NCBI GenBank assembly: GCA_018655525.1
Contig: JABIJM010000020.1
Location: forward strand, 14,091-78,090
Direction of reading: 5' to 3'
Length of the DNA: 64,000 nucleotides
From: Candidatus Woesearchaeota archaeon
GTDB lineage: Archaea; Nanobdellota; Nanobdellia; Woesearchaeales; GW2011-AR9
Shown here: piece after piece, positions 15,208 through 56,096 of the stretch
Position numbering within the stretch: the first letter of the stretch is position 1
Layout of the letters: each line of letters opens with the position of its first letter
The notes under the pieces: model-generated
Database searches by the model: none
What the model saw: the letters and a program-made list of their open reading frames with translations, nothing else
Told to the model about the DNA's origin: nothing
Program-made: the position numbers and the translations under genes

Positions 15208-15273
15208 TTTATGTGTTTTTAGTGAAATCTGCTTTTAAGTTTTGTGGAAGTGTAGGAATATATAGCACACCCC

Positions 15274-15303
15274 ACTAGACAAGTACGCATAGAGCTTATA
15301 AAT
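15274..15303 (+). promoter_or_regulatory. Conserved motif plus TATA box upstream of LAGLIDADG gene 1
   Basis: ACTAGACAAGTACGCATAGAGCTTATAAAT; 27/30 identical to 55949-55978 (-). Confidence 0.8.
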
Positions 15304-15323
15304 AAAGAAAATCTGAGAGAATT

Positions 15324-16013
15324 ATGAACCTAGGTAAAATTAATAAAATTCCCTTAAATAATATCACTGCATATTTAGCTGGTGTAATTATTGGAGATGG
15401 AAATGTCTCCAATGCATCAAAATCTAAAAAAGATAAATCAAAAGATTATAGAATTACAATTGAAGTTACTGATCTTAATTTCTTAATCAATGTTGAAAAA
15501 TTAATTAAATCAATTATAAAAACAAAAAGTACAGTAACAAAAAGATCAAAAATTAAAGAAAAAAGGAAACAATTATATTATTTTCAATTTAGAAATAAAA
15601 GTTTTTATTACTTTCTTACAAAAGATTTGGAGATTCCAGCTGGAAAAAAGTCAAATATTGTTTTTGTTCCTAATAAAATATTAAAATCTAATGGATTATA
15701 TCCTTTTTTTCTTGCTGGGGTATTTGATACAGATGGAGGAATTAGAGGAAAGACTCCTGGATTTACTTCAGCAAGTAAAAAATTAATTGATGGATTAAGT
15801 TTTATTCTAAATGAACTTAAAATCACCCATTATTTAGATTCATGGGTTAATAAGAGATATAATCAAAGATATTATGGAATTAAGATATCGGTAAAAGATA
15901 CCGACAAGTTTTTAAATGGGTTACCATCATGTAACAAAGAGAAACTTGACAAAGTTCTTGTCCATGTGGACGTGCCGGAGCGGTCAAACGGGCTGGAAGG
16001 TCTTCCGATATAG
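15324..16013 (+). CDS. Free-standing double-motif LAGLIDADG endonuclease-like protein; 3' end overlaps tRNA-Leu
   Basis: AYLAGVIIGDG and FLAGVFDTDGG; no intein splicing motifs; stop TAG 16011-16013 lies in the tRNA intron. Confidence 0.88.
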   Translation: MNLGKINKIPLNNITAYLAGVIIGDGNVSNASKSKKDKSKDYRITIEVTDLNFLINVEKLIKSIIKTKSTVTKRSKIKEKRKQLYYFQFRNKSFYYFLTKDLEIPAGKKSNIVFVPNKILKSNGLYPFFLAGVFDTDGGIRGKTPGFTSASKKLIDGLSFILNELKITHYLDSWVNKRYNQRYYGIKISVKDTDKFLNGLPSCNKEKLDKVLVHVDVPERSNGLEGLPI

Positions 16014-16079
16014 GAAACCTGGCTGAGCTTAGGACCCAGTGGCTTAGTGCCTACGCAGGTTCAAACCCTGCCGTTCACA
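15966..16079 (+). tRNA. tRNA-Leu(UAG) with intron at 30/31 (15997-16026)
   Basis: GTGGACG/CGTTCAC acceptor, CTGGG/CCCAG anticodon stem after splicing, long variable arm, TTCAAAC loop, BHB at junction. Confidence 0.93.
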
Positions 16080-16086
16080 TCTTTTT

Positions 16087-17658
16087 TTATACACTCTTAA
16101 ACAATTTCACAACTCTTTCTTTTCCAATCTCTAAGATGAATGACGCCAATCGTGGTCCTTGATCTTTATTGATTAAGACATTATACGCTATCTTAAAGAA
16201 ATCTTTAATTGGGAATTCTGAGTTTTTACATAAGATATACATCTCTTCATGTAACTCTTTATCTGTCCATTCTTTTTCACCTAGTTTTTTAGCTAATTGA
16301 TGAAGAATTTCTTTTTCTTCTTTTCCAAGAGTCACTTGCGAGGTTTTTTGTATAGTAAATGTAAATTCATCTGGAGCATATTTTTTAACCCAATTGGTTG
16401 CACATTCTGCACGTTTTCTAATACGTTTTTTATCATGCTCATTCTTAAGCTCTTTTTCAAAATATCCAATGACTTTATCTATATCAAATTCATAAATTTG
16501 TAAAAGTGTTGTTAGATGTCTAAAACTTGGTTGGTAAGGAATAGTCTTTGGAATTTTTCCAATATAACTTAATTCATATGCAACCGACATTTTGATTGTA
16601 TCTTTTTCATTGACTTTATGTTCACCATAATACACACGCTCCACTTTATCAAATTCTTCATAGATTGCAATAACATCTACATCAAATGAGATTGCAAATT
16701 CTCTATTTGGACGAGTTCCTGCAAATAAGTATCGTGTTACTTCTGGTTCATAAATTTCAAGAACGTCTGTTAATGTTGTTACGTTTCCTGAAGAGGAAGA
16801 CATTTTTCCTCCACCACCTTTAATACGAATAAAATCGTACATAACATAGGTTGGTGCTTCAAAACCATAAACTTCTTTGCAAATTTGTTTTCCTGTATCA
16901 AAACTTCCACCCTTTGTAGAATGGTCTTTTCCACCTGGCTCAAAATCTACATTTTCATACATCCAACGCATTGGCCAATCTATTCGCCATTTTAATTTGA
17001 CATTTCCATCTTTGCGAATATCTACTGTTTCGGTTGTACCGTCAGTTAATTTGTAGGAAACACCCCATTTACCGTCCCAGGTTAATTCTGTAACATCGTC
17101 AGTTCCTAATTTTTTAGAGAATACTGCAATAGGCAACCAATCATCTGCTAAAGGGTTTTCTCTATATTGATCAATAATTTTTTTGATTTCTTTTGTATGT
17201 TCTAATGCTATTTTGATCTCTTTAGCATATGTACCTTTCCGATACATTTTATGTTGATAAATATATTCTGGATTAATTCCAACACGTTTTACAGATTCTT
17301 CTACTGCAACTTGGTTATGCTGTGCATAACTTTCATGTGAATCATAAGGGTCTGGTACATCTACAATTGCTTTTCGTAATTGTGCTTTAAGTTCTTCTTG
17401 TTTTGGCATGCCTTTTGGAACTTTTCTAAATACGTCATAATCATCCCAGGAATAAATAAATCGGACTTTTTTGCCTTTTTTTTCAAGAGCACGTTTCACT
17501 AAATCTACAGTTATAATTTCTCTAAAATTTCCAATGTGTACAACACCGGAAGGTGTTATTCCTGAAGCAACAGTATATGTTTCTTTATCTCCTTTTTGTC
17601 GGATGATGTTATCTGCTGCGACATCTGTCCAATGATATGATTTTTGTTCTTTTGCCAT
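16087..17658 (-). CDS. lysS: Class I lysyl-tRNA synthetase
   Basis: GITPSGVVHIGNFRE, KLKWRIDWPMRW, FEPGGKDH, KMSSS. Confidence 0.96.
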   Translation of the reverse strand: MAKEQKSYHWTDVAADNIIRQKGDKETYTVASGITPSGVVHIGNFREIITVDLVKRALEKKGKKVRFIYSWDDYDVFRKVPKGMPKQEELKAQLRKAIVDVPDPYDSHESYAQHNQVAVEESVKRVGINPEYIYQHKMYRKGTYAKEIKIALEHTKEIKKIIDQYRENPLADDWLPIAVFSKKLGTDDVTELTWDGKWGVSYKLTDGTTETVDIRKDGNVKLKWRIDWPMRWMYENVDFEPGGKDHSTKGGSFDTGKQICKEVYGFEAPTYVMYDFIRIKGGGGKMSSSSGNVTTLTDVLEIYEPEVTRYLFAGTRPNREFAISFDVDVIAIYEEFDKVERVYYGEHKVNEKDTIKMSVAYELSYIGKIPKTIPYQPSFRHLTTLLQIYEFDIDKVIGYFEKELKNEHDKKRIRKRAECATNWVKKYAPDEFTFTIQKTSQVTLGKEEKEILHQLAKKLGEKEWTDKELHEEMYILCKNSEFPIKDFFKIAYNVLINKDQGPRLASFILEIGKERVVKLFKSV

Positions 17659-47446: not shown

Positions 47447-47587
47447 CGCCCCCGCCGGGATTTGAACCCGAGTCACTGCCTGTCTTCGTGAGAAGGCCTC
47501 AGAAATCTGAGATTTCTCGCGCGAAAGGGCAGTATGATAGTTTATCCCTGATTCCAGAAAAATCAGTCCGGACTACACTACAGGGGC
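47447..47587 (-). tRNA. tRNA-Glu(UUC) with D-loop intron (47542-47567) and canonical 37/38 intron (47482-47521)
   Basis: Spliced: GCCCCTG TA GTGT AGTCCGGACTA TCAT A CTGCC CT TTC GA GGCAG TGAC TCGGG TTCAAAT CCCGG CGGGGGC G; BHB at both introns. Confidence 0.9.
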
Positions 47588-55086: not shown

Positions 55087-55225
55087 GGGCCTGTAGCTCA
55101 GTCTGGTCTAGAGCGCTGATTCCTAAAGGAAGCGTAAGTCTTATATGAATGCTCTTGATTCAGATTACAACATCAAGAGTATCTAAGCCAGCCAGAGGTC
55201 GAGGGTTCAAATCCCGCCAGGCCCA
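55087..55225 (+). tRNA. tRNA-Ile(UAU) with introns at 29/30 (55119-55137) and 37/38 (55146-55189)
   Basis: Spliced: GGGCCTG TA GCTC AGTCTGGTCTA GAGC G CTGGT CT TAT AA GCCAG AGGTC GAGGG TTCAAAT CCCGC CAGGCCC A; BHB helices GCGC/GCGT and CTTA/TAAG. Confidence 0.88.
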
Positions 55226-55948: not shown

Positions 55949-55978
55949 ATTTATAAATTCTATCCGTACTTGTCTAGT
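55949..55978 (-). promoter_or_regulatory. Conserved motif plus TATA box upstream of LAGLIDADG gene 2
   Basis: ACTAGACAAGTACGGATAGAATTTATAAAT on - strand; extra CACTAGACAA copies nearby. Confidence 0.8.
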
Positions 55979-56096
55979 TGTCTAGTGGTTTATAAAAAAA
56001 CCTATGAGAGTTAAAAATTCTTTAGAATTAGGTCCTATAGCACTAGACAATTATTTCAGAATTCCATAACCACATTTGAAAACGAGGATTTGGAAT

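Follow-up and report, generated by a model that had tools for sequence, protein, structure and literature searches.

We analyzed a 64,000-nucleotide (nt) stretch of the genome of a Candidatus Woesearchaeota archaeon (NCBI GenBank assembly GCA_018655525.1, contig JABIJM010000020.1, positions 14,091 to 78,090 of the forward strand; hereafter the window), in which a free-standing LAGLIDADG homing endonuclease gene runs into a tRNA-Leu(UAG) gene that is interrupted by a short bulge-helix-bulge (BHB) intron (Table 1). The source genome (G000) comprises 963 kb in 30 contigs, and the window lies on contig C26; C-numbers denote contigs of G000, and G-, L-, and P-numbers are labels of genomes, loci, and proteins. 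An initial annotation of the window had given the feature as 15261-16079: the open reading frame (ORF) and the tRNA region are real, but 15261-15323 is not coding, and holds a promoter-like motif and the 5′ untranslated leader of the gene instead.

The endonuclease gene and the tRNA-Leu(UAG) gene

The ORF encodes a protein of 229 aa, whose folded part spans residues ∼4-215. A Pfam scan of the protein returned LAGLIDADG_3 (9.4e-15), LAGLIDADG_2 (2.8e-8), and Hom_end (1.5e-4) only, with no GIY-YIG domain, and its best match by sequence in the PDB is I-DmoI (5.8e-5). Both LAGLIDADG motifs, with the acidic residues noticed in the initial annotation, are present and align to I-DmoI: the catalytic D25 (codon 15396-15398) of the first motif aligns with the I-DmoI motif GDG, and the catalytic D137 (codon 15732-15734) of the second with the motif AEG; D25, D135, and D137 show no variation among 33 homologues that share 40-64% identity with the query. 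The AlphaFold (AF2) model computed from these 33 homologues has a predicted local distance difference test score (pLDDT) of 89 and a predicted template modeling score (pTM) of 0.86, with pLDDT below 50 only at residues 1-3 and 216-229, and shows the LAGLIDADG saddle of two half-domains (alpha-beta-beta-alpha-beta-beta-alpha, twice). Foldseek matched the model to I-DmoI (E-value 2.5e-10; template modeling score 0.74-0.80, normalized to the target); PI-PfuI, other intein endonucleases, and I-Tsp061I were also among the matches. Judged by sequence and predicted fold, the protein is a two-motif LAGLIDADG homing endonuclease of the I-DmoI type, and looks catalytically intact.

The gene is free-standing and has no intein context, since it starts at its own ATG at 15324, behind the motif and a TATA box and 642 nt before the tRNA, since the gene upstream is divergent, and since an Rfam scan detected no group I intron, its sole match in the window being one tRNA. 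On this point, too, the initial annotation was right.

The tRNA gene escapes standard tools: default ARAGORN found no tRNA in the window, Rfam at the gathering score recovered one of the two confirmed window tRNAs (the second one only, see below), and ARAGORN -i detected 15965-16081 with the isotype miscalled as Pro. Our tRNA search combined ARAGORN -i, a custom T-arm/acceptor finder, and hand annotation, and the cloverleaf of tRNA-Leu(UAG) was built by hand. It is a class II tRNA-Leu(UAG) located between 15966 and 16079, with the acceptor stem GUGGACG/CGUUCAC, the discriminator A73, a long variable arm, and the T arm GCAGG-UUCAAAC-CCUGC; a T-run follows exon 2 at 16082-16088, and a pattern search found the gene to be single in G000. 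The first 31 nt of the tRNA-Leu genes in two genomes of the same genus (G001 and G002), both without an intron, show 100% identity to exon 1.

The intron folds around a 4-bp helix in which GGCU at 15991-94 is paired with GGCU at 16021-24; this helix is flanked by the 3-nt bulges GGA (15995-97) and GAG (16025-27), and in each of them the cut is predicted to follow the second base. With its weak outer helix, the BHB motif is of the relaxed form, although the two 3-nt bulges and the 4-bp helix are all present. Predicted splicing yields an 84-nt tRNA-Leu that matches the uninterrupted gene of G001 and G002 (98.8% identity over 84 nt); uninterrupted genes are also found in G014 and G008. Among metagenome contigs, some join 15996 directly to 16027 and others have different inserts at the same site; these loose ends, whether they show an intron-less allele or a different intron, share just ∼31 nt of exon with the window and may be from other organisms. 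No metagenome contigs from within the strain join cleanly across the endonuclease gene; three joints across it have sides of 26-35 letters at a likeness threshold of 88%, and are indistinguishable from the sequence of other organisms. The gene for the splicing endonuclease EndA is present (G000:C8:4224-4484, reverse strand; a 208-aa open frame with a single Pfam hit), and so is the ligase gene rtcB, which is itself interrupted (see below).

The last 48 nt of the ORF overlap the tRNA gene: tRNA exon 1 encodes residues 215-224 and supplies the first base of codon 225, and the intron encodes residues 225-229 and the stop codon TAG (16011-16013), which lies inside the loop of the intron hairpin. 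The reading first proposed for this arrangement, with the tRNA 5′ half as last codons (215-225) and a stop supplied by the intron loop, thus holds. Stop codons are lacking in the GC-rich exons and are provided by the AT-rich introns. We compared 66 database homologues (E-value up to 1e-10; 40-65% identity, except for the 99%-identical near-copy P0001), some of which are named Woesearchaeota or Nanoarchaeota by their source databases: 38 translate the 5′ half of tRNA-Leu in the same frame as our ORF, eight in the second frame, and six in the third; P0014 and P0021 enter the tRNA only briefly, and 12 do not read in (five of these look cut short). Because the tail is disordered in the model and because all three frames occur among the orthologues, the overlap looks incidental: the read-through into the tRNA appears to be a by-product of tight packing, and no functional extension of the protein. 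On this comparison, what is conserved is the tight packing of the gene against the tRNA.

Inside the ORF, near 15910, the initial annotation had pointed to a TATA-like element that could drive the tRNA. The element (TTTTTAAAT) is there, and its counterpart in the G020 orthologue, CTTTTTAAAG, lies equally far from the tRNA. Alleles without the endonuclease gene (in G001, G002, and G008) have TTTTTTAAAT ∼25-35 nt before the tRNA +1, and TTTTTAAAT resembles this native TATA box; it is a candidate tRNA promoter because the inserted gene displaced the native one. The tRNA would then be transcribed from the element inside the ORF. In other pairs of a gene and a co-oriented tRNA, the TATA box of the tRNA likewise lies in the last codons of the ORF.

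Table 1. Location and basis of the features discussed (window positions, unless a contig or locus is named)
Feature	Position	Strand	Basis
Promoter-like motif AGCACACCCCACTAGACAAGTACGCATAGAGCTTATAAATAAA, conserved; ends in TATA box 17 nt upstream of ATG	15265..15307	+	Motif search
Free-standing LAGLIDADG homing endonuclease gene	15324..16013 (incl. stop)	+	Pfam, I-DmoI match, AF2, Foldseek
First LAGLIDADG motif, residues 16-27, AYLAGVIIGDGN (AYLAGVIIGDG)	15369..15404	+	Alignment to I-DmoI AYLLGLIIGDGG
Second LAGLIDADG motif, residues 128-139, FFLAGVFDTDGG	15705..15740	+	Alignment to I-DmoI ..YVAEGD
TATA-like TTTTTAAAT inside ORF, 49-57 nt before tRNA +1; candidate tRNA promoter	15909..15917	+	G020 comparison
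tRNA-Leu(UAG) exon 1, tRNA positions 1-30; also codons 215-225 of ORF	15966..15996	+	Hand-built cloverleaf
BHB intron, 30 nt, tRNA position 30/31	15997..16026	+	Fold; absent in G001, G002, G014, G008
tRNA-Leu(UAG) exon 2, tRNA positions 31-73, discriminator A	16027..16079	+	Comparison with G001, G002
Intron-containing tRNA, 63-nt insert, partner of second LAGLIDADG gene	55087..55225	+	Rfam tRNA, 43.5 bits
Second LAGLIDADG gene, 251 aa	55173..55928	−	Frameshifted orthologue beside same tRNA in G001
Motif copy upstream of second LAGLIDADG gene	55950..55988	−	Motif search
rtcB BHB intron, 31 nt, in HWG/YG active-site motif	L008 1850-1880 = G000:C23:100449-100479	+	Fold, restored HWGYGFP
rnhB (RNase HII) BHB intron, 30 nt, at DEAG/RGP junction	L010 957-986 = G000:C9:27656-27685	−	Fold, covariation

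Endonuclease genes and BHB introns at three host genes

The tRNA-Leu locus could be read in 12 genomes (the analyzed flank contained it in 11 of the 22 genomes with a hit for the lysyl-tRNA synthetase LysRS; in G015 the copy lies elsewhere on the contig). Three of them (G000, G020, and G015) have an intact orthologue of the endonuclease gene, and all three have the intron at position 30/31; seven (G001, G002, G014, G008, G012, G022, and G024) have neither gene nor intron. Empty alleles of the kind that the initial annotation had suggested looking for in relatives are therefore found, G001 and G002 lacking both. The intron accompanies an intact gene in 3/3 genomes, vs. 2/9 genomes without the gene (Fisher test, 0.045), a value that, like the other Fisher values given here, overstates the association, as the genomes are related and non-independent. 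In 36 of the 38 database orthologues that share the reading frame, the translated sequence ceases to follow the exon immediately beyond tRNA position 30. Remnants of the 3′ end of the ORF are kept in G012 and G004, and in both of these genomes and in G014 the lipoprotein gene, the tRNA-Leu gene, and the LysRS gene are syntenic; in G014, about 100 nt separate the lipoprotein gene from the intron-less tRNA, and the endonuclease gene is absent. A larger mobile island carrying the gene was considered for the tRNA-Leu locus and rejected, the neighbors being syntenic in relatives. In a LysRS tree built by a quick method, the intron is found in the clade of G020, G011, and G004, and in G000 alone in the other clade (both clades with a support of 99 in the Shimodaira-Hasegawa-like approximate likelihood ratio test); the distribution of the intron is discordant with the phylogeny given by this tree.

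Other traces surround this tRNA gene. In G004, G012, and G022, tRNA-Leu is preceded by a duplicate of its first 7-13 nt, followed by a hairpin and then by a degenerate inverted copy (L024 3883-3944, reverse strand; L013 543-604, forward strand; L019 2514-2569, reverse strand); together, these elements form a strong stand-alone hairpin. A BHB intron at position 13/14 was considered for these relics and rejected, since they fold as plain hairpins without a BHB motif. The endonuclease remnant of G012 and the intact protein P0021 both end in such an upstream copy of the tRNA start (..HVDVPV..), and a similar leader hairpin precedes tRNA-Gln in G000 (C11 62892-62920) and in G015. In the same-genus genomes G002 (L012 1288-1450) and G001 (L025 1065-1148), the intron-less tRNA-Leu gene has the opposite orientation relative to LysRS from that seen in G000 and in the other members of the family. 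In G002, the final 30 nt of the tRNA are also repeated ∼50 nt downstream, which resembles an attachment-site duplication.

Introns are rare in protein genes. Two protein genes of G000 show the same arrangement as tRNA-Leu(UAG). A member of the LAGLIDADG family (C23 99563..100153) lies 57 nt upstream of rtcB, which is interrupted ∼240 nt into the gene by an insert with a 10-bp hairpin and a 4-bp helix that has 3-nt bulges on both sides; removing the insert restores the sequence HWGYGFP. The rtcB genes of G021 and G023 are also interrupted, by a 30-nt intron located 7 nt further upstream. An orthologous LAGLIDADG gene (66-69% identity) is found upstream in all three interrupted rtcB loci (G000, G021, and G023) vs. 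0/24 uninterrupted ones (p = 3.4e-4; 27 informative loci, three more that start after an intein having been left out). The start of rnhB, in turn, is overlapped in G000 by a gene with LAGLIDADG and winged helix-turn-helix (wHTH) domains (C9 28724..27711). Interruptions between DEAG and RGP were found in five of the 30 rnhB loci (G000, G016, G004, G035, and G025); their central 4-bp helices covary (AGGA/UCCU, CGGG/CCCG twice, CGGC/GCCG, and AGGG/CCCU), and predicted splicing restores DEAGRGP in all five. A C9-type gene lies upstream in 2/5 interrupted loci (G000 and G016) vs. 0/25 uninterrupted loci (p = 0.023). The LAGLIDADG-wHTH ORF of G016, which has one in-frame stop, keeps its frame into rnhB exon 1 and ends within the intron; the start codon of rnhB is not evident there. 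We met no prior description of the rtcB and rnhB BHB introns in the literature searched.

A family of free-standing LAGLIDADG genes and its shared motif

In total, G000 contains 14 free-standing LAGLIDADG ORFs (10 from the LAGLIDADG_3 search, together with those found through the promoter motif) and two intein-type LAGLIDADG hits. A survey of their distance to tRNAs, as suggested in the initial annotation, did reveal enrichment: a tRNA lies no more than 100 nt from the 3′ end in nine of the 14, vs. eight of the 736 other ORFs of at least 150 aa (Fisher test, 2e-13). Eight of the nine end inside the tRNA gene and one ends 47 nt away, whereas none of the eight comparison ORFs overlaps its tRNA; three are upstream of and co-oriented with the tRNA, and six are downstream and convergent. 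At the loci of related genomes, the same proximity holds for 23 of 42 free-standing LAGLIDADG ORFs. Where a relative's protein is >50% identical to a G000 paralogue, the pair shares its tRNA partner and orientation in 9/9 cases, and the G000 paralogues are only ∼30% identical to each other. The genomes of the same genus have only one or two LAGLIDADG_3 hits in short frames (<400 aa), vs. 10 in G000 by the same search. Three orthologues are broken, by an in-frame TAA in G002, a frameshift in G001, and an in-frame stop in G016. The G002 copy (L098 1351-2151; 83.5% identity) is the tRNA-Asn-linked gene, and the G001 copy (L103 1327-2278; ∼47-66% identity) is the orthologue of the second LAGLIDADG gene of the window; both still lie beside the same tRNA. 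The tRNA partner of that second gene has 74 nt between the flanks of the anticodon stem according to Rfam.

Several relations between these genes and tRNA introns were considered. An enrichment of introns in partner tRNAs within G000 is uninformative, and tRNA-Tyr (C21) and tRNA-Asn (C17) refute a general rule that would place the intron in whichever half of the tRNA adjoins the endonuclease gene. Rfam searches with E-values up to 5 at 10 loci added no hidden partner tRNA. One tRNA that none of the programs detected (G000:C8:49905-50075, reverse strand) has an apparent intron inside the T-loop (..CTGGGTTCAAA[insert]TCCCAG..) and at least one more, and a convergent LAGLIDADG ORF (C8 49305..49946) stops in this T-loop insert. 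A candidate tRNA-like locus in the window (47447-47587, reverse strand; C26:61537-61677) was detected by the T-arm/acceptor finder only, and neither by ARAGORN -i nor by Rfam.

A motif of ∼45 nt (CACTNGACAAGT...TATAAA) precedes 13 of the 14 free-standing LAGLIDADG ORFs, and the fourteenth (C5) has only a degenerate remnant of it. There are 19 copies of the motif in G000; its 16-nt core has two clear copies in the window (15272-87 and 55965-80) vs. 0.14 expected by chance, and the motif is conserved upstream of orthologues in other genera. Copies are also found before a RadC-like gene (C8 5935..5261; the EndA gene is ∼0.8 kb away), a Bro-N gene (C12 90227..), two ORF6N genes (C15 7765.. and C23 177176..), an Nre-like gene (C23 152634..), a gene for a PC4-like single-stranded DNA (ssDNA)-binding protein (C30 12686..), and at one spot without an ORF (C18 11074); the names of these non-LAGLIDADG genes are our reading of their sequences. 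From the shared motif, the genes look like one regulon.

A proposed intron-dependent selfish endonuclease and its known counterparts

The intact endonuclease gene is found almost only beside an interrupted host gene, while the introns also occur without the gene, and because of this asymmetry we favor a selfish endonuclease that depends on the intron. A cassette of ∼750 bp (the shared promoter motif and the ORF) would have inserted directly 5′ of tRNA-Leu(UAG). The enzyme would recognize the uninterrupted tRNA-Leu gene around position 30/31 and cut it there; repair from an occupied allele would copy the cassette, the 30-bp piece of exon, and the 30-nt BHB intron together; the intron would split the recognition site in the occupied allele, making its carrier immune; and the host splicing endonuclease and ligase would remove the intron from the transcript, so that the tRNA still works. 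The cleavage site near 30/31 and immunity through the intron are what we infer from this arrangement. The system would thus be an archaeal, BHB-intron counterpart of the collaborative homing of phages, in which a selfish endonuclease is tolerated only where an intron splits its target, a reading to which we give a probability of roughly 0.6. As in collaborative homing, a free-standing gene adjoins an intron that has no ORF, and gene and intron co-occur, with exceptions; the co-occurrence suggests that the two travel together. The recurrence of the asymmetry at three unrelated host genes, the conserved catalytic residues, the presence and absence of the genes within one genus, and the three broken copies all fit a selfish endonuclease.

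A number of observations weigh against this reading, in addition to the overstated Fisher values. Introns that lack the accompanying gene are common. The 30/31 intron is present without the endonuclease gene in G011 and G004 (two of the nine gene-less genomes), and rnhB introns are present without a C9-type gene in G004, G035, and G025; in G031, a different LAGLIDADG lineage abuts an uninterrupted rnhB. The tails of P0028 and P0053 follow the exon beyond position 30. Some tRNA partners have no intron (tRNA-His in L047 and tRNA-Gly in L050, each of 72 nt), and where the gene is convergent at the 3′ end, tRNA-Tyr (C21) has an intron at 37/38 only and tRNA-Asn (C17) has one in the D-loop and one at 37/38. 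Because 22 of the 27 tRNAs of G000 have introns by ARAGORN -i, the link to introns at tRNAs is uninformative within this genome. Nor is there a clear relation across genomes between the number of LAGLIDADG genes and the number of disrupted tRNAs: with no LAGLIDADG hits, G008 has 30 Rfam-detectable tRNAs, but G005, G009, and G018 have only 10-12. Finally, the G000 and G020 orthologues are 58% identical, similar to the 62% of their LysRS, so the gene may have resided in these lineages vertically for a long time, and part of the pattern may reflect vertical descent, because the association of each lineage with its tRNA is old, with orthologues down to 40% identity. The initial annotation had already proposed an archaeal equivalent of collaborative homing, in which the enzyme cuts intron-less tRNA alleles; the co-occurrence of gene and intron at three host genes lends this partial support, while intron-less partners, gene-less introns, and a read-through without signs of function speak against a strict form of the proposal.

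Part of the same evidence would be expected from an enzyme that recognizes the junction of the tRNA and its flank, or another site in the tRNA, with its own insertion or sequence differences providing immunity and the intron being a linked passenger. Family members that abut intron-less tRNA-His and tRNA-Gly and the uninterrupted rnhB of G031 agree with such a target, as does the end of the ORF, which always coincides with a tRNA boundary, whichever side of the tRNA the gene is on, and the relic copies of the tRNA start in G004, G012, and G022 hint at events near the tRNA 5′ end. We consider this explanation unlikely, however, since it predicts neither the 36 of 38 orthologues beside a tRNA-Leu interrupted at 30/31, nor the 3/3 vs. 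0/24 at rtcB, where the intron lies far inside the gene, and since the sequence upstream of the tRNA +1 is poorly conserved among the empty alleles and would make a poor target. An even less probable alternative is a domesticated, maturase-like helper that assists the folding or splicing of relaxed BHB introns, or the processing of the neighboring pre-tRNA, is kept only with its intron, and is no longer mobile. A helper would likewise show up only together with the intron; maturases of the LAGLIDADG type are known, and that of bI3 is among the fold matches (Foldseek rank 39); and the orthologues are intact down to 40% identity. Against this, both catalytic aspartates are invariant in the 33 homologues, the intron alleles of tRNA-Leu in G011 and G004 and of rnhB in G004, G035, and G025 manage without the protein, and BHB introns are cut by EndA, which is present here, and are not known to need maturases. 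The presence and absence of the gene among close relatives and the three broken copies also fit a selfish element better.

The similar divergence of the orthologues and of LysRS, and a tail without structure or conserved frame, would suit a decaying or neutral passenger, i.e., an old, vertically inherited gene packed against a tRNA in a streamlined genome, whose overlap and intron association are accidents of descent. Compaction does not explain 9/14 vs. 8/736, though. The distribution is also at odds with the LysRS tree, three unrelated host genes show the same pattern, and the catalytic residues are conserved, so that we regard a passenger as very improbable.

If the intron-dependent endonuclease is the right explanation, it provides a testable DNA-level mechanism by which BHB introns enter new sites. 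Archaeal BHB introns have no ribozyme and usually no ORF. The predicted targets would be tRNA-Leu at about 30/31, HWGYG in rtcB, and DEAGRGP in rnhB, which would explain why introns are found in the most conserved motifs, and the family would offer natural LAGLIDADG enzymes whose candidate targets can be read off; many tRNAs in such genomes are missed by standard tRNA finders. A 2026 preprint (10.64898/2026.10.13.758758) still calls the arrival route of archaeal tRNA introns open. More tentatively, and with odds that we would put a little short of even, free-standing LAGLIDADG enzymes may be the means by which, at the DNA level, BHB mini-introns without an ORF reach conserved sites in tRNA genes, rtcB, and rnhB of DPANN-type archaea, with each lineage dedicated to one host gene, the intron as its immunity element, and the whole family driven from one motif that is shared with genes of DNA-repair type (RadC-like, Nre-like, and the PC4-like ssDNA binder). 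Such a role would give archaeal tRNA introns a concrete route of arrival, and collaborative homing a second and independent origin.

Free-standing LAGLIDADG genes beside archaeal tRNAs, or linked to BHB introns, were not found in the full-text literature open to search, which does not cover subscription journals and supplements. The closest relatives in sequence and fold are I-DmoI, from the 23S rRNA intron of Desulfurococcus mobilis, and I-Tsp061I, which are likewise two-motif monomers associated with archaeal BHB introns; their genes, however, lie inside long rRNA BHB introns, whereas the ORF here starts outside its host gene and only its last codons reach the intron. LAGLIDADG genes are also intron-encoded in the archaeal group I introns described by Nawrocki et al. 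(PMC6125680). Short BHB introns of patchy distribution in a protein-coding mRNA have a precedent in Cbf5 of Crenarchaeota (PMC2738675); the hosts here are instead rtcB and rnhB of DPANN-type genomes, and, in contrast to what the available portion of that source describes, the introns are linked to an adjacent LAGLIDADG gene. The SegB gene of phage T4 is a free-standing homing endonuclease gene in a tRNA gene cluster, and promotes the inheritance of its own region (PMC2330249); it resembles our gene in its place among tRNA genes, but is a phage gene of the GIY-YIG family, and no protecting intron figures in the accessible text of that source, while the protein here has LAGLIDADG domains only by Pfam.

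The nearest parallel in logic is the collaborative homing of the free-standing F-CphI with the psbA group I intron in cyanophage S-PM2 (Zeng, Bonocora & Shub 2009, as presented in PMC6083498). In both systems the free-standing gene adjoins an intron-containing gene, the intron has no ORF, gene and intron co-occur, and the proposed logic is the same, with the intron protecting and the enzyme mobilizing the intron. The differences are in the parts: F-CphI is of the Endo VII type, and the enzyme here is a LAGLIDADG protein; the psbA intron is a self-splicing group I intron, and the one here is a 30-nt BHB intron for which splicing by proteins is predicted; and F-CphI belongs to a phage, whereas here the host is a cellular archaeal genome, the targets would be tRNA genes, rtcB, and rnhB, and the enzymes form a multi-copy family with a shared promoter motif. 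The principle is known from phages, and the enzyme family, the type of intron, the hosts, and the multi-gene scale are new.

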